64,000 bases of DNA from an uncultured Methanomassiliicoccales archaeon (GCA_963695345.1 OY968769.1:1-64000); one strand, 5' to 3'; positions 11,173-26,847 are shown, numbered from the stretch's first letter. The notes: generated by a model not told the origin, from the sequence alone. Numbers and translations are program-made.

Positions 11173-11247
11173 GGGCTGGTAGATCAGCGGAAGATCGCTG
11201 CCTTCGCAAGGCAGAAGCCGGGGGTTCGAATCCCCCCCAGTCCACCA
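11173..11247 (+). tRNA. tRNA-Ala (anticodon CGC), CCA encoded
   Basis: Acceptor GGGCTGG/CCAGTCC with G3:U70; anticodon arm CTGCC-TTCGCAA-GGCAG; T-loop GTTCGAATC; ends ACCA. Confidence 0.96.
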
Positions 11248-11303
11248 TTCTTCTGGCTAACCATGATTCCTCCCTTTTCTGGAAAATGATACTGGCTTGA
11301 TAT
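11237..11303. repeat. Direct repeat copy 1 (tRNA 3' end + integrase tail; att-like)
   Basis: ccagtccaccattcttctggctaacc...ggaaaatgatactggcttgatat, near-identical to 12820-12887. Confidence 0.92.
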
Positions 11304-11311
11304 CTTGCCAT

Positions 11312-11390
11312 CTTCCGAACGATTGCCATGATATGAGCATTTGAGCCTCAAGCCAGTCAGGTTTCTTGTAGTAAATCCTCTAGGGCCACA
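11312..11390 (+). repeat. Degenerate site R1
   Basis: attgcc(11322)-N23-agccagtcag(11351)-N13-aatc(11374). Confidence 0.8.
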
Positions 11391-11397
11391 ACTGCTA

Positions 11398-11961
11398 TCA
11401 TGTTCCCGTTTCGAGGGATGTATCGAGTTCTCTCAACTGAGGTATATTCGTGTCGACAAGTACAATCTTCCAGTTTCCGGGATGGGATCTTGAATCTTCT
11501 ATTCCTTCTATTTTCATCGATATGCCGTGATAAATCCAATCATTGGACAAATAGATACCATTACTATCCGAGTAGTGATCCGTGCTGAGTTCTCCCCATT
11601 TTGTGTCAATAGACTCTTTACCTAAATACTTCCAATTAGTCGAATCATGAGGATCCCAGGGGAAAATCGACACCTCATTAGAAATATTGTAGTAACTTGT
11701 AGAATTGGGACTATAATCGGATTGCTGCCATTCATAATAATCATAAGTTACCTCGTAAGATATGTTCGAAGAATTAACATCAAGGATATCGTATGTTATG
11801 GTATAATTCCCAATACCGCTATTCCAAATTTGATACTTTAAGAAATAACCGGCCTGGAGCGAGATCCTGTCGTCTTTTCCGTATAGAATGACACCGGCTC
11901 CGGCGATGACAACGATTGCGATGATAACTATGGCCAAGGCAACCATCAGTTTTCGGCTCAT
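11398..11961 (-). CDS. Membrane-anchored/secreted hypothetical protein
   Basis: N-terminal hydrophobic segment, Y/S/N-rich beta-type body, lower GC. Confidence 0.75.
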   Translation of the reverse strand: MSRKLMVALAIVIIAIVVIAGAGVILYGKDDRISLQAGYFLKYQIWNSGIGNYTITYDILDVNSSNISYEVTYDYYEWQQSDYSPNSTSYYNISNEVSIFPWDPHDSTNWKYLGKESIDTKWGELSTDHYSDSNGIYLSNDWIYHGISMKIEGIEDSRSHPGNWKIVLVDTNIPQLRELDTSLETGT

Positions 11962-12057
11962 CTCTGTTCCATTGATTTCCGAAATATATAGAGCATTTAC
12001 TCAATGAAGAATAAATAATCAGAAATGGTTTGCAGGGCACTTGCTTTATCTCTCCTG

Positions 12058-12146
12058 CTTCCGAGGGATTGCAGGTTATCCTGATAGGGGGCATTTCTGC
12101 CTCAAGCCATTCAGGTTCATTGTGGCAAATCTCTTCTGCCTACTAC
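12058..12146 (+). repeat. Degenerate site R2
   Basis: cttccgagggattgc...ctgatagggggcatttctgcctca-agccattcag(12105)-N13-aatc(12128); aligns with R1. Confidence 0.8.
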
Positions 12147-12154
12147 GTTTCTCA

Positions 12155-12667
12155 TCAGGACCTAGTCTTACTGTGCCTCATGACAGCATAGGTGGCAAGC
12201 ACAGACATGAGGGCCGTAGCCACGACGATCGCGATAGTGTCCAATGGAATAGTATTCGAACTGTCATTTGATGGATAAGTGACGCGGACAAAACCACCTA
12301 ACCCGGAGGATAACATACCTGGTCCGTGTGTAAGACCATAAATTGCGTATGTACCCGCGGGAACGTCCTTTTGGATATCAACCGAAGTGACATTCATCAC
12401 CGATAAATCCTGGATATAGGCAAATGACTGATTGTTAACTGCTCTTTGGAAATTGTCATCGGTCATGAAGTACATATCGAAACTAACGTTACCAGACACG
12501 ATAATCTCAACATGTCCACCGGATTGCACCGTTATATTAGATTCTTGTAAAATAGGGCCCCCGTAAGGAGCCGAGACATCATTTCCCTTTACATTTGACG
12601 GAATCAACGTCAGACTCAGTATCATGAAGCCTGCCAAAATGATGAATGATTCCTTCCTCCCCCACAT
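12155..12667 (-). CDS. Secreted hypothetical protein with C-terminal TM anchor
   Basis: Signal-peptide-like N-terminus, C-terminal hydrophobic helix followed by a basic tail. Confidence 0.75.
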   Translation of the reverse strand: MWGRKESFIILAGFMILSLTLIPSNVKGNDVSAPYGGPILQESNITVQSGGHVEIIVSGNVSFDMYFMTDDNFQRAVNNQSFAYIQDLSVMNVTSVDIQKDVPAGTYAIYGLTHGPGMLSSGLGGFVRVTYPSNDSSNTIPLDTIAIVVATALMSVLATYAVMRHSKTRS

Positions 12668-12746
12668 GATTTTGGATTGACGGGTAAGTAGATAATGATT
12701 TCTGTATTGAAATAAAATAATTGGAAAATGTTCGATCTATCGCCCG

Positions 12747-12830
12747 AACCTTCGGCGAGACTATTCCCAAATTAGGGATAAATCGGTCGTTAGCCAGTCA
12801 GTTTTGTGGAGGGTAATCTCCAGTCCACCA
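12747..12830 (+). repeat. Degenerate site R3 (runs into the duplicated tRNA 3' end)
   Basis: attccc(12763)-N23-agccagtcag(12792)-N13-aatc(12815)tccagtccacca. Confidence 0.85.
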
Positions 12831-12887
12831 TTCTTCTGGCTAACCTCGATTCCTCCCTTTTTCGGGAAAATGATACTGGCTTGATAT
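12820..12887. repeat. Direct repeat copy 2 (tRNA 3' end + integrase tail)
   Basis: Matches 11237-11303 with 26 bp and 23 bp identical blocks. Confidence 0.92.
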
Positions 12888-12960
12888 GCCGCATAGAGTC
12901 TTCTGCAGCGCTCATGTCCTCAAAATCGAGCCCGATATACTTCATCGTCGTCATAATGTG
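12820..12960 (-). pseudogene. Tyrosine recombinase/integrase C-terminal remnant
   Basis: Reads IMTTMKYIGLDFEDMSAA, then after a frameshift LYAAYQASIIFPKKGGIEVSQKNGGL into the tRNA-end copy; TTxxY resembles the catalytic Tyr box. Confidence 0.6.
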
Positions 12961-13019
12961 GTTTTGTGGAAAACCGTGGCTAATGGAAGACTCGGATGCT
13001 CGCTTTCCACGAATTGGAG

Positions 13020-13070
13020 AGTGACTGCCCTAATATGGGCACGCCAGCTTTTGGTTAGTCGAACTTCTTG
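13020..13070 (+). repeat. Degenerate site R4
   Basis: actgccc-taatat-gggca perfect palindromic core; ggttagtcga at the N23 position. Confidence 0.65.
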
Positions 13071-13076
13071 GAAGCC

Positions 13077-13262
13077 TCAATAGCTCGGATATTGAGCGAA
13101 TCCAAGTATCACATGGCAATGCGGACACGTGAACATGGTTGTAAGGACATCCATTGGCACTATCGTTGTGAGAGTCATCCTGGCCTTTTGGCCATAGTCG
13201 ATGATTTCCCCCGCAATATTGACTCCGCTGACTTCCTTTTTACAATAAGGACACAACCCCAA
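13077..13262 (-). CDS. Small zinc-finger-like protein
   Basis: CPYC...CPHC pairs; TTG start with GAGG upstream. Confidence 0.65.
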   Translation of the reverse strand: MGLCPYCKKEVSGVNIAGEIIDYGQKARMTLTTIVPMDVLTTMFTCPHCHVILGFAQYPSY

Positions 13263-13329
13263 ACTTCCTCACCGAGGATCGTAAATCATATCGATTATAA
13301 AGAAAGGTGAATTGTATATCTATCTCTCA

Positions 13330-13410
13330 AACCCTCGGCGGGGCTTCCCGGATTTTGGAAAAACGGTCGCAGACCAGTCGGTCATAAGGAGGAAGATCCC
13401 GCTTCGCTAT
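13330..13410 (+). repeat. Degenerate site R5
   Basis: ccctcggcgggg-cttcccggattttggaaaaacggtcgca-gaccagtcgg(13372)-N13-gatc(13395); aligns with R3. Confidence 0.75.
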
Positions 13411-13429
13411 TCCCTCACACTCACAATTA

Positions 13430-13774
13430 CTATGGACTGGTCTCTTTTTCGAAAGTATAGAAATCCACCGCTTCATCCCCTACCACCCAGGCATCGTGCC
13501 CCGGGGGAATGTCGATCACATCACCGGGACCGACGTCGATCTCCTGTCCATCGTTGCCCCTGATCCGTAGCCGACCCTTGATCTGGATCCCGAAATGGTG
13601 GAGTTGGCAGGTGGCGGTGCCGGCGAACGGGCTGACATCCTTCGACCACTTCCAGCCCGGTTCGAATGTATATTTGATTGCGACGAAGTTTCCTACCTTG
13701 ACATTGTCCACTCTTGTCAATGGAGGTGTCATTACGGAGTCTGGTTTGTTGAAGCTCTTCTTCAGGATAGTCAT
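13430..13774 (-). CDS. Cupin domain protein
   Basis: FEPGWKWS..CQLHH..GDVIDIPPGHDAWVVG cupin motifs. Confidence 0.9.
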   Translation of the reverse strand: MTILKKSFNKPDSVMTPPLTRVDNVKVGNFVAIKYTFEPGWKWSKDVSPFAGTATCQLHHFGIQIKGRLRIRGNDGQEIDVGPGDVIDIPPGHDAWVVGDEAVDFYTFEKETSP

Positions 13775-13862
13775 GTATATTCCGTGATATCGCTTGACAG
13801 TCCTTGGTATTAGAATATACGTTCGAATAGTGAACCCTCGATGGCATCTTACTCTCTTTCCG

Positions 13863-13914
13863 GCTTCGAGCGATTGCCCTGATATCGGACATTATCGTCT
13901 CGCACGGTCCAGAC
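13863..13914 (+). repeat. Degenerate site R6
   Basis: gcttcgagcgattgccc-tgatatc-ggacatt core; distal box degenerate. Confidence 0.6.
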
Positions 13915-14139
13915 TCACCATAGGTCCTGAGTCAACTCTTTTGGATAGTGGGCGGTGATTAGCCTGCATGCTTTACATCTGTGACCATCAAGATACTGCC
14001 GTGCGAAGAATCCGATCTGCGAAGGTATCGGCTCTCCTGACAGTTGAAGATAGATAGGCTTCTCACTCCAGACCATCCCTAGACCTGGCGCGCTTATGAC
14101 GCCCTTCTCCATCTCATTTCCGCACTCCGGACATTTCAT
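13915..14139 (-). CDS. Small zinc-ribbon protein (DUF6487/PF20097-like)
   Basis: MKCPECGNEMEKGVI...W...GHRCKACRLI. Confidence 0.75.
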   Translation of the reverse strand: MKCPECGNEMEKGVISAPGLGMVWSEKPIYLQLSGEPIPSQIGFFARQYLDGHRCKACRLITAHYPKELTQDLW

Positions 14140-14214
14140 TCTGTGACTTCCCCATTTTGCATGATCCTGAAAGGATAAAAAGAAACGGGTATGAAGACTG
14201 CTGATCCAAGTAAT

Positions 14215-14290
14215 CAAGCGATTCCCCTGACATGGAATGCGCAGGCCCCGAGCCAGTCAGGTTCGATGTCGTGATCCTCCCCATGGGCCT
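14215..14290 (+). repeat. Degenerate site R7
   Basis: gcg-attcc-cctgacat-ggaat core; agccagtcag(14251)-N12-gatc. Confidence 0.8.
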
Positions 14291-14468
14291 GATACTTGTT
14301 CCGTTCAGATTCCCCGTTCAAGTTTCTACATGGCGACGTTACCAAGGATACTTGTCTGAACTGAAATGTCTTGAAATGACCTGAATTATTTCTATTTATA
14401 ACATGTTAAGATGGTTTTTAACCCCTTTTGCAGTGGTCTTCTTTGGTACAACTTAGGGGGTTGGCCAT

Positions 14469-16247
14469 TTGTTGGATCAAGAGAACGATACTAACCGGAA
14501 AACTAACCGAATGGTAACGCTCATGGTGGTGGCCATGTTCATTGGCGCCACACTTTTCATGATGCTGTTGCCGACGATGACCGCCACGAGGAGCAGTTAT
14601 GATACGAAGAACGTCATCATGATGATTCCAGATGGATGCGGGACTCAGGAAACGACCTTGGCTAGATGGTACAATGGCGGAAGCCTTGCTCTGGACTCGA
14701 TGCCTTCCGGATTGATCCGGACCTATGGCGCCGATTCCATCATTACCGATTCCGCTCCCGCTGCGACCGCGTTTGCCACTGGCTACAAAACCGATGACAA
14801 ATATGTTGGAGTATTGCCCGGCACGGTAACTGTCCCGGGCGTGGTGGCCTCATCGGCCGATCTGAAGTATTCGCCGGTCGCCTCGGTGCTAGAGGCCGCC
14901 AAAGCGAAGGGCATGTCGGTCGGTCTAGTCGCCACTTCCAACATTCAGCATGCAACACCAGCCGGTTTCTCGGCCCATTGGCCCGCCAGGTCGAACTACA
15001 CAAACATTGCCGAGCAACAGGTCTATGAGGACATCGACGTCGTCTTTGGAGGCGGATCGCAATACTTGCTGCCAAAGAGCGAGGGCGGCGTTAGGACCGA
15101 CGGGGAGAACCTGATCAACGTTCTCCAGTCACGTGGCTATTCATACATTGATGACAAGACCGAGCTTGCCTCGCTCAACACGAAACATGTTAAGAAGGTC
15201 TGGGGTCTCTTCGCGGCTGACGCGATGGCAAAGGACATCGACCGCTCGCTTCCCCAATTCCAGAACGAACCCTCGCTTGCAGAGATGACCCAGGCGGCGA
15301 TCGATATCCTATCGAAAAATCCGAAGGGATTCTTCCTGATGGTCGAGGGCAGCCAGGTCGATTGGTCCGCCCATGCCAATGACCCGGTCGGTGTCGTGAC
15401 CGAGATCCTGGCGTTCGATGATGCGGTAAGTGTCGCGCTGGATTTCGCGCACAAGAACAGGAACACACTGATCATGGCGTTCTCTGACCACGAGACCGGC
15501 GGGATGAGCATCGGCAACTCCCAAACGGACTCGACCTACTCCAGTCTCGCGTTGAACAAGGTACTTACACCGGCATTCATGAGCGCGAACCTGACCGGGG
15601 CGGGCATCTATTACGCCTTGCCGCAGAACCCGACCGATCAGCAGGTCAAGGACATCGTCAAGACATACTATGGCATCAGCGATCTGACCGATGCCGAGGT
15701 GTCGGCGATCGAGACTGCCAGGGCCAGCACCACGAATTCGATGGACTACGTCGTCGGTCCGATGATCAGCAAGCGGTGCGATATCGGCTGGACCACGACC
15801 GGACACTCCGGCAGCGATGTCATGCTATATACCTACGGACCGAACCGGCCAGTAGGGCTGTTCGAGAACACACAGCTCGCCAAGATCGCCGCCGACGCGA
15901 TGGGAGTGAACCTGGAAAAGACGACCAAGAGACTGTTCGTCAATGCCAGCGCCACCTTCACCAGCATGGAGGCAAAGGTTTCCACCGACAACAGCGACCC
16001 CAACAACCCGGTTCTGGTCGTGGAGAAGGCCGGTGTGGGTACAATGCGCCTGCCATACGCGAAGGACATCGCCATCTTCAATGGTAAGACATACCAGCTG
16101 AACGGGATCACTGTATCGTCATCAAAGACGAATAGTGTGTGGATTTCGATTGAAGCGGTGTATCTGTTCAATGGAAAGATACGGTCAAGCATGACCGACG
16201 GATCAACATCGGTAATCCCATTGTCTGCGATTGCGATGAACAACTAG
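14469..16247 (+). CDS. phoA: Secreted alkaline phosphatase (PhoA family)
   Basis: NVIMMIPDG, ITDSAPAATA catalytic Ser, HATPA, FFLMVEGSQVDWSAHAND, SDHETGG, TTGHS; signal peptide. Confidence 0.93.
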   Translation: MLDQENDTNRKTNRMVTLMVVAMFIGATLFMMLLPTMTATRSSYDTKNVIMMIPDGCGTQETTLARWYNGGSLALDSMPSGLIRTYGADSIITDSAPAATAFATGYKTDDKYVGVLPGTVTVPGVVASSADLKYSPVASVLEAAKAKGMSVGLVATSNIQHATPAGFSAHWPARSNYTNIAEQQVYEDIDVVFGGGSQYLLPKSEGGVRTDGENLINVLQSRGYSYIDDKTELASLNTKHVKKVWGLFAADAMAKDIDRSLPQFQNEPSLAEMTQAAIDILSKNPKGFFLMVEGSQVDWSAHANDPVGVVTEILAFDDAVSVALDFAHKNRNTLIMAFSDHETGGMSIGNSQTDSTYSSLALNKVLTPAFMSANLTGAGIYYALPQNPTDQQVKDIVKTYYGISDLTDAEVSAIETARASTTNSMDYVVGPMISKRCDIGWTTTGHSGSDVMLYTYGPNRPVGLFENTQLAKIAADAMGVNLEKTTKRLFVNASATFTSMEAKVSTDNSDPNNPVLVVEKAGVGTMRLPYAKDIAIFNGKTYQLNGITVSSSKTNSVWISIEAVYLFNGKIRSSMTDGSTSVIPLSAIAMNN

Positions 16248-16400
16248 TCGGTTTGGCAGACATGCAGACGTTGTTGCCATCGCTCTGATGGTGGGAACAG
16301 TGTCGGTGGGGTCATCCCCGGCAATAGAGAATGAGATCGGCAAACCTCTTCCTTCTTTTTCTACTTCATCCAAAGACCGAAAAATCAGAATTATCCTAAT

Positions 16401-16490
16401 AACCTTCAGCGAGGCAATTCCCGAATGGGGAGAAATCGGTCATCGGGGGTTCAAAATTGGAGAGGCCTTGTTCCTTGCGCCTCCGCTATG
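16401..16490 (+). repeat. Degenerate site R8
   Basis: aaccttcagcgaggcaattcccgaatggggagaaatcggtc, 35/42 identical to 12747-12788 by manual alignment. Confidence 0.8.
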
Positions 16491-16500
16491 TCCGGGATCA

Positions 16501-17164
16501 TTATGGCCGTTGGAAGTACCCGGTCATTATCTCCCTGAGTATCCGCCCCTCGGCCTTCCTCATGTGCTGCAGGAGGGTTGGTTTGCTGATGCTGACCTTC
16601 TGGCACAGCTGCTTGCTGCTGATCTTCTTGGGATAATCATAGTAACCGTTCTGAAATGCCGCCACCATCACTTCCCTCTGCTTTCCGGTCAGGACGGCCA
16701 GGATGTCGGCCTTCTGGTAGGCGGCCCTCCTGAAGGCCATCTTCCGTATGGTGCCGGCGTTCTTCATCATCTCGACAAAATCAGACAGGTTCTTCTGCTC
16801 CCCCATCATGCTGATGGTGAATTTCTCCGGTGAGACGATCGTAGGTATCGTATGGACCAGACCCAGGTCGGATTCCTGGAACTGTCCTTTGGTCTCTTCC
16901 GGTTCCGTGTATCTGATGAGGCAGGTGTGCTTGTTGTCAATGGACTTCAGGACGCTCAGGATCTCTATGTTGCCCAACGTCCTGATATCGTGGATCGACA
17001 CACCCTCTTTCAGGGTGAACTCCATGATCTCGATGCATATGCCTTCTCGGTAGTCCATCTTCAGGGTCTCGAGTATCGAGTAGGAACGGACATGGGCGAA
17101 GGTCTCGGCCATTTCCTCTTTCACGGTCTCGAAAGGCTCGATCTCCAGGGTGATGCGTTCTCAT
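16501..17164 (-). CDS. Bat-type (HTH_10) transcriptional regulator; +1 indel right after the start
   Basis: LTGKQREVMVAAFQNGYYDYPKKISSKQLCQKVSISKPTLLQHMRKAE; upstream in-frame RITLEIEPFET. Confidence 0.88.
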
Positions 17165-17782: not shown

Positions 17783-17821
17783 ATTGATTTGGATATTGAA
17801 TGTGAGAATGTGGGTGATGGA

Positions 17822-18745
17822 ATGAAAGCCATAGTGATAACAGGAAGCGGAGCGCCAGAGGTCCTGCAGCTCAGGGACGTGGAAAAGCCCACGCCCCGGG
17901 ACAACGAGATGCTGGTCAGGGTCCACGCCTCGACGGTGACCATAGGGGACGCCATCCTCCGGAAGATGCCCCGATTCGTCATGGGTCCGATGATGATCGT
18001 GATGGGCTTCAAGCTGAAAAAGATCGCAGGCCATGAGCTTGCTGGCGTGGTCGAGGCGGTGGGCAGGGACATCAGATCATTCAGGGAAGGCGATCAGGTC
18101 TTCGGAACGACCACCGGGCTCAAATGCGGCGCCAACGCCGAATATGTCTGCATCCCCGAGGAAGGAGGAAGAGGGATGGTGGCCATGAAACCAGTCCAAC
18201 GTGATCCTTCGGGGAGGCCGCCGCCATTCCCATCGGGGGGGTGACCGCCCTCCAGATACTTAGATCGGGGAATGTCAGGAAAGGGGATAGGGTCCTCATC
18301 TACGGGGCGTCCGGTTCCGTGGGCACCTATGCCGTGCAGCTGGCGAAGTATTACGGAGCTCATGTGACAGGGGTCTGCAGCGGTGCGAACCTCGACCTGG
18401 TGAGGTCCATCGGCGCCGATGAGGTGATCGACTACACCAAACAGGATTTCAGAAAGAACGGTGAGACCTATGATGTCGTCTTCGACACCGTAAGGAAGCT
18501 TAAGACGATCGGGATGCAAAAAGTCCCTGGGGGAGAACGGGGTCTTCATATCGTCATGGTCTCCCACGAGGGAGTCGAACGAGGATCTCGTCCACCTAAA
18601 AGAGCTCGTGGAGGCGGGAAAGGTACGACCGGTCATCGACAGGACGTATCGGTTGGAGGAAGTGGTGGAAGCCCATAGGTACGTCGATCTGGGACACAAG
18701 AAAGGCAATGTGATTATTACCGTGGTTGGTGATGATAGTGCCTGA
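17822..18745 (+). CDS. NAD(P)-dependent MDR/quinone oxidoreductase-like dehydrogenase (frameshifted)
   Basis: MKAIV..PEVLQLRDVEKPTP, GHELAGVV, VLIYGASGSVGTYAVQLAK, GHKKGNVII across three frames. Confidence 0.85.
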
Positions 18746-18759
18746 GACGCTACCGCACC

Positions 18760-19734
18760 ATGAAAGCCATAGTATGCGACAGATACGGCCCACCGGACGT
18801 CCTCCGGCTCGAGGAGGTGGAGAGACCGATCCCCCGGGACGACCAGGTACTGGTGAAGGTCCATCGCTTCGTCACTGAATGCGGCCGATTTCGAGATCCT
18901 GGGCGGCGCGGTCTCGGCCCGCATCGCCGGCCCCTTCAGGCCACAGGAACAGGATACCCGGATCGGACGTCGCGGGTCGGGTCGTGGCGGTCGGGAAGAA
19001 CATCAAGACGGTTGAAAATTGGCGATGCGGTCTTCGGGGACCTGTTCACCTGCGGCTTCGGCGCTTTTGCAGAGTATGTGGCAGTACCTGAAGATGCATT
19101 GATGCGGAAACCGGACAGCATATCCTTTGAGGACGCCGCCACCCTCCCCCAGGCGGCCAAGATCGCCCTTGCAGGGCCTTCGCGGCAGGCGTCCCCTCAA
19201 TCGAAAGGGCAGAAGGTCCTGATCAATGGCGCCGGCGGCGGCATGGGCACGTTCGCGGTGCAGATCGCAAAGTACTACGGGGCCGAGGTGACCGGCGTGG
19301 ACAGCATGGGAAAGCTCGATATGCTTCGCGCCATCGGGGCCGACCACGTCATCGACTACGCCCAGGAGGATTGCACAAGGAGCGGGGAGCGCTACGACCT
19401 CATCCTGGATACGGTCGCGCGCCGGTCGATCTTCGATTACAGGCGCGTCATGGCCCCCGATGGCCTTTTCGTGCTGGTGGGAGGCTCAAGATATGCCATA
19501 TTCCAGGCCATCCTCCTGGGCCCTCTGGTCTCCATCGCCAGCAGGAAGAAGATGGGCATCAACCCATGGAATGTGGACAACGAGGAGGACCTGCGGTTCT
19601 TGCTCGAACTTCATGAAAAGGGGAAGCTCTTGCCGGTCATAGACAGGCGAATCCCCCTCAGCGAGGTTCCGGAGGCCCTCGGCGATCTTTCAAATGGGCT
19701 CGTTAAAGGGAAAGTGGTGATAGCCATTGAATGA
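18760..19734 (+). CDS. NAD(P)-dependent MDR dehydrogenase paralog (internal compensating indels)
   Basis: MKAIVCDRYGPPDVL, VLINGAGGGMGTFAVQIAK, GKVVI; the PGSDVAGRVV motif lies in another frame. Confidence 0.88.
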   Translation: MKAIVCDRYGPPDVLRLEEVERPIPRDDQVLVKVHRFVTECGRFRDPGRRGLGPHRRPLQATGTGYPDRTSRVGSWRSGRTSRRLKIGDAVFGDLFTCGFGAFAEYVAVPEDALMRKPDSISFEDAATLPQAAKIALAGPSRQASPQSKGQKVLINGAGGGMGTFAVQIAKYYGAEVTGVDSMGKLDMLRAIGADHVIDYAQEDCTRSGERYDLILDTVARRSIFDYRRVMAPDGLFVLVGGSRYAIFQAILLGPLVSIASRKKMGINPWNVDNEEDLRFLLELHEKGKLLPVIDRRIPLSEVPEALGDLSNGLVKGKVVIAIE

Positions 19735-22408: not shown

Positions 22409-24454
22409 TTAGACCGTGGGAATCGTGAAGAAGAATGTCGCCCCCTTCCCTTCCTCCGACTCCACCCATACCCGACCCCCGTGGCGTTCCAGTATCTTCT
22501 TCACTATCGCCAGGCCGACCCCCGTTCCCGGGTATTGGTCCTTGGTATGGAGTTTCTGGAATACCTGGAAGATCTTTTCCGAATACTCCATGTTCAGCCC
22601 GATCCCGTTGTCCTTGACCGAGAAGACCCATTCCCCTTTGACGGAGGTCGCGGAGATCCTCACCTTCGGCGTTTTAGAATTGTGGAACTTGATCGCGTTG
22701 CTGATCAGATTCTGCATCAATTGCACCATCTGGGATTCGTCGGCCTTTACGCTGGGGAGCGGCCCGACCTCGATGACCGCATCGTTGTCCAGGATCGGTT
22801 CCCTCAGGAGGTCAAGGGTCCTTTCCACGACCTTCTCCATGTCCACCGAGGTGAAGATGGCCTTCTTCGATTCCACCCTGGAATACTCCAGCAGATCGTC
22901 GATCAGCTCCCGCATCCTTGCCCCTCCCCTCACGGCGTGAGCAATGTATTCGGAGGTTTGTGGATCGAACTGGCCCTTGGTCTTCCTCTCCAGGAGCGAC
23001 AGGTAGCTGATGGTCATCCTGAGCGGTTCCTGAAGATCGTGGGAGGCGACGTAGGCAAACTGTTGAAGCTCCTCATTGGACCGTTTGAGCGCGTCCTCGG
23101 CCTGTTTTCGCTCGGTCACGTCCTCCCCCGAGCTCAGGGTGGCCACCACCCTCCCTTCGTCGTCGCGCAAGACGGTATTGTGCCACGAGATGAGACGTTC
23201 TTCGCCGTTCAATGACAATATCGGATTTGTGTAGTCCTCGATCGACCCCGTTCCTTCCGTAAGTTTGGCGAAGACCTCCCTCATGTCATTCCTGTCCCTT
23301 TTCGGGATGAAATCGAACCAGCTCCTCCCCACCGGTGAAACCGAGCAATCGATTATCTCGCACCCTTTGCGGTTGAGTATTCTGATCTTTCCATCCAGGT
23401 CAAGGCTGACAATTATGAATCCAGCCAGGTCCAGGTATTTCTGGGCCAGGTCCCGCTCCTTTCGCAGTTCCTTGTCGGCCTTCTTGATCTCTGAAATGTC
23501 CATCTGGGCTGAAATCAGGCGGTCTCCGTGGATTATGTATGAGGCGAGGAAATCCTTGTCCACGTGGGGGCTGTGGTACTGGAATGAAACCGGTCCATCC
23601 GATTGCCGCGCCCTTTCGATCATGGGGAGGTAAAAGGAGGCTGTCTCGGGACCGAGCACCTCGGAACCTTTTCTTCCCCGGACCTGATCGATATCGGGCA
23701 GCCCGAGTAGGTTGAAGCCGGCAGGATTGAGTTCCTCAAAGACCCAATCGATGACCTTCCCCTGTTCATCGTATATGAGCCGGTCGATGTAGAATACCTC
23801 CTGGACCGTCTCGAAGACGTCACGGAACTTGGCTTCGCTCTCCCTGAGGTCCTTGGTTCGTTCTTCCACCTTCATTTCCAGTTCCTCGTTCGCCTTCCTC
23901 AGCGCCTCCTCCGCCTGGATGCGCTCAGTCAGGTCGGCGACGACGATGCAGAATATGCCGTTGTCGCCCGAGGGCAGATAATTGATGGAGAGCTGCATCG
24001 GGACGACCGAGCCGTCGGCGGCCTCGAACAATACATCGTCCCGGACCGGCTCTTCCATGCTCATCTCCATGAGCTCCCTGAACCTGCCTCTCTTAGAATG
24101 ATGGATGAAGTTCTCGATGTTGGAGCCGATCACTCTCTCGAGGGAGGTCCTCATCGAGGCCGCGAAGCTTTGGTTGCAGTAAAGGATCCCTCCGTCAAGC
24201 GATATCGTGAACGCACCGTCGTTCATCTGCTCGAACAGGATCCGGTACGGTTCCTCAGCACCCTTGAGGGTGTAGATCTGTTCCTTTCCGTTGCTGGAGA
24301 CAACGATGGCGTCAACCTCCCCGCTTTGGATCGCCTCCAACGTCTGGGTCTTTTCGGCGAGCTCGTTCCTGAGGGACTCGACCTCTTCCTTGAGGGCTTT
24401 AACGATGGACCGGGAACCTCTCCGGTCGATCGCTTTCCCTTTCTCCGAAATCAC
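22409..24454 (-). CDS. Multi-PAS histidine kinase (HisKA + HATPase)
   Basis: [15 protein letters not shown]-box, [20 protein letters not shown]; 3 PAS; [16 protein letters not shown]-terminus. Confidence 0.95.
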
Positions 24455-24792
24455 ACCCTCCCTTCCCCTTTAAGCCCCTTCTTCGGTTTTATCTCCAGAC
24501 CGACCACTACCTTCTCCTTGTTCGACATGTCCCCCACCAGCCTCCTCAGCGGCAATGGCAGTTTCCGGATCAGGGTCGGAGCCGCCAGGATCTGTCCCTC
24601 TCGCGCCAGCTCGGGCTGCTGGTAGACGTCGATGACCTCCAGGTCATAGCGGCCCTTCAGCTCTTCGTCGCAGATCTTCTTGATGTTCTTGATCGCGTCC
24701 TGAGACCTTGGGGTCGTGCCAGTGACATATAGGCGCAGAACGTATCTCAGGTCCTTCTCCTCGATCGTGGTCTCAATCTCGTCTTCGGACAT
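24451..24792 (-). CDS. kaiB: KaiB family protein
   Basis: [56 protein letters not shown]. Confidence 0.95.
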
Positions 24793-24800
24793 GTTCTCGA

Positions 24801-25109
24801 CTAGCCCTCATCATGCGGTTTGACATTCAATCCTACTAGAACCTTATCCTCGTTGGATAGGTCCCCGATGATCTTTTTTATCGGTCTGGGCAGCCTTCTT
24901 ACCAGAGTCGGCAGCGCCACGATCTGGTCGGCACGCGCCAGCTCGGGATTTATCGAGAGATCGATGACCTCGATGCGGTACCTTCCCTTCAGGTTCTCTT
25001 GGCAGATCTTCCTAAGGTTGGCGATCGCGGTCAGGGACTTGGGCGTTTGACCTGCCACATAAAGCACGAGGTCGAATACCTCGGCCTTCCCCTCCCTTTG
25101 ATCATCCAT
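24801..25109 (-). CDS. kaiB: KaiB family protein
   Basis: [51 protein letters not shown]. Confidence 0.95.
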
Positions 25110-26847
25110 GATCCTTTTCCCCCACCTTTTCATTGGTGGTCCTCAATGACCTCATCCGCTTCCTATTGTCGTCCAAGGTATCTTTGCGCCTTTCCTCGTC
25201 CTGCAGCTTCCTCCTGAGGGAGGCTTTCTTTTCCTCGAACTCGGCCCGAAGGACTTTGATCTGGACCTCCATCATCTTCTGCTGATGGTCGAGGTTCAGC
25301 TTGAGCAGTTCAATATCCTCCGCCCTCGCTACTTCGTCAGCCTTATCTTTTACCTCCTGGGCATAACGGGCGGAGCCGGTGAGGACCCCGGCCGGACCGA
25401 TGTACGGAGGAATGAGGTCGATCCCCTCGTTGGTTATATGGAACTCCCGGACCTGATTGGAGTGGGCCATCCCTCGGGACTTCACCAGTCTTAGCAGGCG
25501 GTTGTTCTCCCCGTTGGACTCGACGTCCTCCAATAGCACCCAAGTGTCCACCAGAGAGGAGATCATGGAGCTCTGGTCCGGTCTTTCGGAGTGCTTGAGA
25601 TCGGTGAAGACCGAGGTAATCCCTTTCATCTTCAGGAAATCGACCATCCTTACCAGCGTCGAACGGACCTCCGTTTCCTCGCCGATCGTCATCAGACTGC
25701 TGATCGGATCGAGAACGATGGCCTCCGGTTTGAACTCCGTAATTTTCTTGTGCAACGTGACGAGGTGCATCTCCAGGCCGTAGACCGTAGGCCTTTCCGC
25801 GTGTATCTGCAGCAGTCCTTTCTTGATGAACGGTTCCAGATCGATGCCGATGGACCTCATGTTCCGTATGATCTGGCCAGGTGACTCCTCGAAGCTGACC
25901 AATATGGCCCGCTTTCCGTTCCCGCAGGCTTCCCGTAAGAACGCCGCTCCGAACGAGGACTTACCCGTGCCAGCCTGACCGGTGATCAGGACCGAGCTTC
26001 CTTTGAAGTATCCCTTGCCTCCGAGCATGGCGTCCAGATCGGGAATGCCGGAGGATACGCGCTCGTCGGTGACCTTCGAAATCAGGCCAAGTGACGAGAT
26101 GGGCAGCACCGAGAACCCGGTCTCGTCGATCAGGAACGGATACTCGTTGGACCCGTGCGCAGACCCGCGATACTTGATAATCCTCATGCGCCTGGTGGCG
26201 ATGTTACCCACGATGCGGTTGTCCAGCACGATCACGGCATCGGAAACATACTCCTCCAGACCGTTGCGGGTGAGGATACCGTTCCCCTTCTCTCCGGTGA
26301 TGACCGAGGTCACGCCCTTCTCCTTCAGGAAACGGAACAGGCGCTGAAGCTCGGAACGGATGATCAGGGTATTGCCAAAGGCCGAGAATATGGACTCGAT
26401 CGTGTCCAGGACCACCCGCTTGGCGCCGATGGAATCGATGGCGTAGCCAAGGCGCACGAAAAGACCTTCCAGGTCGTACTCGCCGGTCTCTACGATCTCC
26501 GCCGCCTCCACCTGCACATAGTCGATGGAGAGCATGTGGGCGGCCTGTAACGCTTTCAGGTCGAATCCCAACGAGGACACGTTCTGTGCCAGCTCATCAT
26601 CCGTCTCCTCGAATGAAAAGAAAACGCCAGGCTCATTGAATTTGGTCGCTCCGTTGACCAGGAACTCCATGGCAAAAAGGGTCTTGCCACTTCCCGGCCC
26701 TCCGACAATAAGGGTGGGGCGCCCCTTGGGCAACCCACCCTTCGTGACATCATCGAATCCATCAATTCCAGTCATGACTTTGGGCAGTTCTTTCCGACCG
26801 ATCCGAACAGTATCCGCCTTTTGGACCTTTCTCTTCACTCGACTCAA
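25102..26847 (-). CDS. kaiC: Circadian clock-type double-domain ATPase KaiC
   Basis: Two RecA domains: [24 protein letters not shown]; [34 protein letters not shown]; C-terminal coiled coil. Confidence 0.96.

Follow-up and report, generated by a model that had tools for sequence, protein, structure and literature searches.

What does the row of short, related repeats beside a tRNA-Ala gene in an uncultured Methanomassiliicoccales archaeon represent: an array of gene cassettes, or the traces of integrated elements? The repeats lie between 11.3 and 16.5 kb in the first 64,000 nucleotides (nt) of the genome's single contig (GCA_963695345.1, OY968769.1:1-64000; hereafter the window). A sequence-only reading of the window had described eight of them, R1 to R8, as recombination sites of a tRNA-anchored, integron-like array of single-gene cassettes. 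We compared the locus with the rest of the genome (G000; contig C1, 2,561,992 bp, 85% complete by marker genes), with related genomes and with metagenome contigs. The repeats form a real family that is linked to the attachment (att) junctions of tRNA-targeting elements. The window probably holds a decayed tandem pile of attP/attR arm and core ends, left at tRNA-Ala by small integrase-borne elements, and this pile looks like a known kind of genome scar, not a new integron-like cassette system.

Five of the eight proposed sites passed leave-one-out profile searches of the 2.56-Mb genome (R1, E = 3.7e-8; R2, 2.3e-16; R3, 1.9e-18; R5, 1.4e-12; R7, 0.0032). A profile of the seven better sites revealed two further copies, R9 and R10 (G000:C1:2556968-2557038 and 2556533-2556558, minus strand), with leave-one-out values of 1e-12 and 9.4e-6. 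R8 reached only 2.2 in these searches, R6 was not found when left out, and R4 had E = 89 (rank 68 of 320), and 0.2 with the seven-site profile. When the profile was built from seven copies in other genomes, R3 (6e-23), R2 (3.9e-16), R5 (2.8e-13), R9 (7.7e-13) and R1 (2.5e-8) were recovered, R10 (0.0045), R7 (0.035) and R8 (0.042) matched more weakly, and R6 and R4 were not found. An extended profile of 16 copies gave nine genome matches at E <= 3.7e-9, all in two loci, namely the window at 11.3-16.5 kb and G000:C1:2556475-2557079; the next match had E = 0.47. The motif AGCCAGTCAG occurs seven times in the genome, counting both strands, with three occurrences within 2.9 kb here and one in R9.

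The repeats are therefore real and lie where the sequence-only reading had placed them, but not all eight stand. R1 (11301-11393), R2 (12014-12154) and R7 (14222-14281; 14175-14303 as a member of the training set) are copies of an arm of type A, and R3 (12712-12836) and R5 (13307-13405) of an arm of type B, all on the plus strand, as are the remaining sites. R1 and R7 continue into a degenerate tRNA-Ile-like core, followed in R7 by flank; R2 has GGTTTGCA and part of a hairpin upstream; R5 has a degenerate core, and R3 abuts an intact copy of the 11-nt 3' end of tRNA-Ala. R6 (13825-13924) and R8 (16391-16441) are 5' half-copies of types A and B, respectively, backed by local similarity only: R6 is 91% identical to R10 over 32 nt and gives E = 3.7e-9 as a member of the training set, and R8, a weak copy, is 83% identical to R3 over 42 nt. 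R4 (13019-13070) is statistically unsupported and offers only the palindrome TGCCC-TAATAT-GGGCA. The short inverted repeats are present as first described, and the 13-nt spacing to (A/G)ATC is exact in R1, R2, R3 and R5 by direct reading. The 23-nt spacing from ATT(G/C)CC to AGCCAGTCAG holds exactly in R1 and R3, but R4, for which it had also been claimed, lacks AGCCAGTCAG, and R7 has 24 nt.

Similarity between the copies is only about 50-70% across the extended unit, and for all nine G000 copies the closest relative is a copy in another genome, so that local duplication is ruled out as their origin. An operator or terminator motif used across the genome is also ruled out, as no other place in 2.56 Mb matched the profile better than E = 0.47. 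A coding cause of the conservation was rejected by eye, because hand translation of two copies put the shared CTGACTGGCT in different frames in type A and type B. A sequence-only covariance model found R in all eight genomes of the genus (eight copies in G000, five in G004, three in G005, two each in G001, G006 and G007, one each in G002 and G003), and outside the genus it gave weak matches in four of 39 family genomes of other genera.

Two features overlooked in the sequence-only reading connect the repeats to integration. The tRNA-Ala(CGC) gene (11173-11247, plus strand; ARAGORN; Rfam tRNA, 67 bits) is the integration target, with the attL core at its 3' end. A 67-nt direct repeat starts in this gene. 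Its first copy (DR1, 11237-11303, plus strand) consists of the last 11 nt of the tRNA and a 57-nt stretch, termed the P' arm, with CTGGCT at +6 and +45; its second copy (DR2, 12820-12887, plus strand) repeats the tRNA 3' end and the P' arm with 94% identity over 68 nt. On the minus strand, tblastn revealed the C-terminal remnant of a tyrosine integrase (12821-12984, with a frame change at 12898), whose 55 residues correspond to about 269-323 of a 340-aa protein in the same-genus genome G003 and contain the catalytic-tyrosine region TTMKYIGLDFEDM. R3, DR2 and the remnant together make an attP-like junction. DR1 adjoins R1 with a short TATCT overlap, of the kind that a deletion would produce (read from alignments). 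An intact integrase is absent from the window, and no match to the integrase family PF00589 lies within about 100 kb of the array; the nearest are at 2.43-2.46 Mb, none nearer than 2,455,659. A weak Rfam match to the C/D-box small RNA sR28 over the integrase remnant (12900-12952, minus strand; 17.5 bits against a gathering threshold of 39, E = 0.39) was taken as chance.

Comparison with six same-genus genomes (G002-G007) established tRNA-Ala(CGC) as a variable integration spot, at which occupancy and content vary and the flanks are conserved (76-89% identity upstream). The layout in these relatives is tRNA, 57 nt, an opposite-strand integrase, 1.6-12.9 kb of cargo and a terminal R copy. The 57-nt arm follows the tRNA in G002, G003, G004, G006 and G007, of which G007 keeps that stretch only. 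In the other four it runs on into an integrase 3' end matching window 12820-12952, so 11304-12819 is an insertion in this genome. G003 and G006 have a complete integrase (340 aa; PF00589, E = 8e-15). The gene is truncated in G002, G004 and G007, and in G005 only its tRNA-overlapping part is left; a putative 368-aa second integrase in G005 proved wrong, having no integrase match. A single type B copy of R lies downstream in five of the six relatives, 1.6, 3.3, 5.0, 7.4 and 12.9 kb from the tRNA, and in four of these five (G003, G004, G005 and G006) it is directly followed by an 11-19-nt copy of the tRNA 3' end. Elements integrated at tRNA-Ala thus have R as their distal end, and the sequence beyond R and core is better read as the native tRNA flank. 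In a contig from run X3, tRNA-Ala is joined directly to the flank that follows R and core in G003, and this contig represents an empty site in some relative. The 12.9-kb segment of G003 also contains a second integrase-like gene and a large open reading frame (ORF) with a weak, sub-threshold primase-polymerase match. The named homologues of the integrase belong to Methanomassiliicoccales and Thermoplasmatota bins, and no relatives were found in viral contigs.

Metagenome contigs extended this picture. Eighty integrase loci were collected and the 51 best tabulated, the other 29 being at most 32% identical. A tRNA (Ala or Val) lies antisense at the integrase 3' end in 22 of the 51, and three (L073, L078 and L084) show a joined form, running from integrase 3' end through P' arm, core and R to the next gene, the same form as the R3 junction in the window. 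The motif CTGGC[TC] occurs 6-10 nt past the tRNA in 19 of the 22 tRNA-linked loci, as compared with none of 22 for the reverse-complement control, and at +6 and +45/46 in six of seven loci of the genus. No part of R is better conserved than AGCCAG, the inverted partner of this motif, which is unchanged in 11 of 26 copies and differs at one position in most of the others (by eye). The short inverted repeat of R has a twin in the P' arm, with half-sites alike, by eye, in three of four joined sites (window/G003, G007 and L078, not L073). It had been proposed as the crossover core; it is instead an arm element, and its twin stands across the real core, which is the tRNA 3' end. We infer that AGCCAG/CTGGCT and the palindromes may be bound by the integrase or a partner protein. 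The integrase reading frame runs on through P' arm and core for its last roughly 35 codons (L012:2189-3211 in G003; L078:34-1098), entering the antisense strand of the tRNA when integrated and R in the joined form. Only the tail beyond the catalytic tyrosine is thus exchanged on integration, and the gene is not split. Contig L078 showed no terminal overlap that would indicate a circle.

Alignment of 15, and then of 26, copies divided R into two types. Type B comprises R3, R5, R8 and the junction copies of the relatives; type A comprises R1, R2, R6, R7, R10 and further copies from other places in the genus. The well-kept copies of type A terminate in AAATCTCCTTGGGCCCAC, which is the 3' end of tRNA-Ile(GAT). 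In G007, tRNA-Ile(GAT) precedes CTGGCT motifs and an integrase of 329 aa that shares 37% identity with the Ala type, and the 20-kb island at this tRNA is closed by a type A copy with an exact 18-nt core. Thus the T-arm and acceptor end of the target tRNA recur in degenerate form as the 3' third of R, which includes the (A/G)ATC motif. R9 had been considered a recombinant of the two types; this was dropped, as a GCCC-type palindrome also stands with a tRNA-Ala-like core in L073, and a given palindrome type hence does not require a given core type. G004 contig 15 (L047:9588-11583) has a well-kept type A copy whose tRNA-Ile-like core does not match the neighbouring tRNA: 1.8 kb upstream, on the same strand, is a tRNA-Pro(TGG).

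The tRNA-Ile locus itself is missing from G000: none of its 34 tRNAs (ARAGORN) is tRNA-Ile. In G007, tRNA-Arg, tRNA-Ser, tRNA-Ile(GAT) and the 20-kb island lie in a region that, judged by synteny, is flanked by the two contig ends of G000 (window position 1 and G000:C1:2561992). The tRNA-Ile gene and its island are therefore missing from the assembly, which was probably broken there. In the G007 island (L018:147-7694), one ORF of 1618 aa is helicase/methylase-like, another of 183 aa is integrase-like and shares 83% identity with an ORF in the G003 element, and the start of a third, of 202 aa, resembles a TIR domain by eye; from these putative domain names, the cargo looks like defence-type genes.

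The joined forms and the junctions in the relatives identify R as the element-side arm and core of attP/attR. R would thus be the P arm plus tRNA-derived core of the attachment site of small Methanomassiliicoccales integrative elements carrying a tyrosine integrase. In the proposed order, attP would begin with the GGTTTGCA motif and a variable-loop hairpin, followed by a short palindrome (TGCCC-N6-GGGCA or TCCC-N6-GGGA) and a (T)NAGCCAG motif. About 45 nt copying the T-arm and acceptor end of the target tRNA would come next and form the crossover region. The 57-nt P' arm would follow, with inverted CTGGCT at +6 (and a second at about +45 in this genus) and the twin palindrome, and then the 3' end of the integrase gene. 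The predicted targets are tRNA-Ala(CGC) for type B and tRNA-Ile(GAT) for type A. Integration would leave P' arm and integrase beside the tRNA, and R with a copy of the tRNA end at the far junction. We infer the order of integration and loss events: several elements, mostly tiny, would have been laid down in succession and their integrases then deleted. The residue would be a series of R-plus-core scars, each accompanied by a single small cargo gene with a promoter, and R3, core, P' arm and integrase remnant would be the single surviving attP-like junction. Accretion of foreign DNA at a tRNA by a tyrosine integrase, as suggested in the sequence-only reading, is supported. In favour of the decay scenario are the closer kinship of all nine G000 copies to copies in other genomes, the degeneracy of most cores, the remoteness of the nearest PF00589 matches, the DR1-R1 overlap and the lowered G+C content of the locus.

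Several observations count against this decay scenario. The spacing is very tight, with seven copies in 3 kb and one small gene between neighbours, and in most units 13-26 nt separate the stop codon of a gene from the end of R. The scenario leaves this spacing unexplained, since simple decay would require several deletions ending at similar points. An intact core is present in R3 only: those after R1, R2, R5, R6 and R7 are degenerate, and in R2, R5 and R6 the core is a weak resemblance by eye. The tRNA-Ile-type copies R1, R2, R6 and R7 lie, unexplained, within a tRNA-Ala island, mixed with tRNA-Ala-type copies. Among the relatives, the R copy of G002 lacks a core and the tRNA-Ala island of G007 lacks R, and 25 of the 51 metagenome loci have neither tRNA nor R, often because the contig ends there. 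Apart from these observations, a block comprising the 5' part of R, the promoter and the start of cargo gene 1 is common to G000 and G004, so some units travel as blocks.

In an alternative reading, the locus is a working cassette platform, analogous to an integron but using double-stranded, attP-like sites: R and core would be live, and single-gene circles (core, gene, promoter, R) would be moved by an integrase acting in trans. If such circles were inserted one after another at the core, the result would be the observed repeated order of R, core and the next gene's stop codon, and the 1.58-kb block from R1 through genes 1 and 2 to R3, bounded by the 67-nt repeat, could leave as a circle. R-gene-R units are also found in G007 (around a 386-aa gene) and twice around DUF6487 paralogues in G000, close R pairs occur in L073 (2.2 kb apart) and L095 (0.3 kb apart), and the block common to G000 and G004 fits as well. 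The divergence of the copies, the degenerate cores and the lack of an integrase within about 100 kb nevertheless speak against an active cassette array. In 47 family genomes, 28 of 30 loci with homologues of the DUF6487 cassette gene have no R, the only two that do being in G000, and no identical cassette turned up in a second context. Over 12923-14513, the order is the same in contigs of run X1, which represents a close strain (about 2% different) and may be the source sample. None of the public runs contained as much as half of the sequence words. No joint across any unit was seen in the public-run contigs, in which 11306-12810 is uncovered; none bridges DR1 to DR2, and they have no bearing on excision or absence of the 1.58-kb block. 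We therefore regard a working platform as unlikely. It is similarly improbable that R and core remain usable as alternative attR/attP sites, at which an incoming related integrase could excise and reinsert single-gene mini-circles. If they did, they would constitute an archaeal cassette platform made from attP arms and not from attC hairpins, a second, independent way of building gene-cassette arrays, and would explain both the one-gene spacing and the mixing of tRNA-Ala- and tRNA-Ile-type sites.

The DUF6487 gene of the window (13915-14139, minus strand; 74 aa from the ATG at 14139; Pfam E = 7.5e-11) encodes a zinc ribbon, and a DUF6487 search of genome contigs returned one distant bacterial match only. 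Its paralogue flanked by R9 and R10 (G000:C1:2556475-2557079) is 54% identical to it; this locus is on the opposite strand, roughly 5 kb short of the far end of the contig, and adjoins a gene resembling the major facilitator superfamily (named by eye). A third paralogue (G000:C1:2535694-2535891) is 56% identical, has an in-frame TAA and has no R copy within 1.5 kb.

R might alternatively be mainly a regulatory (or terminator-promoter) module that has spread with genes and is recognized by a regulator encoded in the element, with its location in attP being secondary. On the minus strand, R follows one gene and precedes the A/T-rich promoter of the next; in five units it starts 68-96 nt ahead of the start codon of the next minus-strand gene. 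Base changes on the two sides of the 5' hairpin preserve its stem (GGGC/GCCC in most copies, AGAGCT/AGCTCT in R10). GCAAACC and a T-rich run come after the hairpin on the minus strand, and the 5' part of R is conserved together with promoter and gene 1 between G000 and G004. This explanation leaves the tRNA-like 3' third of R, and its match to two real tRNAs, unaccounted for; R1, R8 and R9 have no downstream minus-strand gene, and the 12.9-kb G003 element, with many genes, has a single R, at its junction. We consider a primarily regulatory role unlikely. That R is a family of small structured RNAs or 3' untranslated-region elements is very improbable: small hairpins do show compensatory differences and R2 folds better than shuffled sequences (z of -3.2 and -3.5 on the two strands), but RNAalifold found no consensus structure on either strand of 15 copies, eight of ten single folds had z between -2.1 and +0.6, and besides tRNA and the chance-level C/D-box match there was no Rfam match at E <= 1.

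The decayed pile that we favour can be set against known systems. Like integrons, the locus has single genes in a row and in one orientation, a recombination-type site at each 3' end and tyrosine-recombinase chemistry. In contrast to integrons, the window has no attC-like single-strand hairpin, IntI-type integrase or attI; its sites derive from attP arms and tRNA ends, and each gene may have its own promoter. The sequence-only reading had noted no resemblance of the sites to attC. RNAalifold gave no consensus pairs on either strand of the 15 copies, and ten single-strand DNA folds contained no long hairpin (z +0.56 to -3.46). The Ile-type integrase scored 19 bits against a cut-off of 265 for the NCBIfam integron-integrase model TIGR02249, and the Ala type was not listed among the matches. 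Tyrosine-recombinase sites, tRNA anchoring and accretion of foreign DNA are thus retained from the sequence-only reading, and the analogy with integrons is not. Archaeal integrons, as published, have IntI and attC (Ghaly et al., 2022; PMC9668308).

The closest described pattern is tandem accretion at one att site with decay to integrase-less remnants, as in the cis-mobilizable elements (CIMEs) of streptococcal integrative and conjugative elements (PMC5704250); archaeal tyrosine-recombinase elements also form arrays by site re-use (PMC6563490). With CIMEs, the window shares repeated att junctions in one orientation beside the target gene, a lost or truncated integrase, retained cargo, and an attP-like junction where neighbouring elements meet. 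Five solid and two half copies of R lie in 5.2 kb from which the integration genes have been lost. It differs in its archaeal host, in that conjugation genes are not involved, in its far smaller units (0.35-0.75 kb, one gene) and in the mixing of two att specificities, tRNA-Ala and tRNA-Ile, in one array.

Archaeal integrative plasmids and proviruses with tyrosine integrases of the SSV and pNOB8 classes target tRNA genes. They integrate in the 3' part of the tRNA gene, duplicate that part and have the integrase gene at the junction. The same arrangement was seen here. The tRNA 3' end is directly repeated in the window, in G003, G004, G005 and G006, and at tRNA-Ile in G007; the integrase beside the junction is intact in G003 and G006, and the window has remnants and no live element. 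The difference is that integration here alters only the integrase tail and leaves the gene unsplit. The arm architecture of AGCCAG/CTGGCT with twin palindromes was not found in the literature searched on Methanomassiliicoccales and archaeal elements.

The genes that come directly after the tRNA are small and on the minus strand. Cargo gene 1 (11398-11961, minus strand; 187 aa) has an N-terminal membrane anchor by eye and no Pfam family, and a homologue 37% identical to it lies inside a mini-element at the same tRNA in G004. Cargo gene 2 (12155-12667, minus strand; 170 aa) has, by eye, a signal-peptide-like start and a C-terminal anchor, and again no Pfam family. A small Cys-rich ORF (13077-13262, minus strand; 61 aa), with sub-threshold zinc-ribbon matches only, and a cupin-like gene (13430-13774, minus strand; Cupin_2, 23 bits, under the 27.2 cut-off) follow. 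Orthologues of the latter in G003 (89% amino acid identity) and G002 (83%) are placed beyond the repeat copy. An alkaline phosphatase gene (14469-16247, plus strand; Pfam E = 2.3e-94) lies between R7 and R8, and an HTH_10 regulator gene (16501-17124, minus strand; Pfam E = 2.7e-17) ends 26 nt from R8. By eye, each gap has an A/T-rich stretch upstream of the next start codon. The G+C content is 0.44-0.49 over 11-14 kb, as compared with roughly 0.51-0.64 in most other 1-kb bins of the window.

Beyond the pile, the genes at 17-27 kb look cellular, and the variable region has its right border at about 27.1 kb in the single comparison that defines it. At 17789-19734, a zinc alcohol dehydrogenase gene is possibly broken: its N-terminal (ADH_N) and C-terminal (ADH_zinc_N) halves occupy two ORFs with about 500 nt between them. 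A PAS histidine kinase stands beside KaiB and KaiC homologues on the minus strand (22409-26847), within a stretch that is not syntenic with G007. Elsewhere in the genome (G000:C1:2430787-2431355), an odd 98-nt tRNA call with a four-base anticodon, perhaps containing an intron, lies about 180 nt from an opposite-strand PF00589 match; having the same layout as the tRNA-Ala locus, it may be another integrated element.

To our knowledge, few mobile elements have been described in Methanomassiliicoccales, a group of methanogen-related archaea. The layout proposed here would give an uncharacterized family of their integrases a concrete attP, consisting of a P-arm palindrome, AGCCAG, a tRNA-like core, CTGGCT and a twin palindrome. 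With the R profile, the ends of elements and the scars of old integrations could be recognized in related genomes and in metagenome bins, and the locus would illustrate how att-arm repeats can mimic a cassette array.

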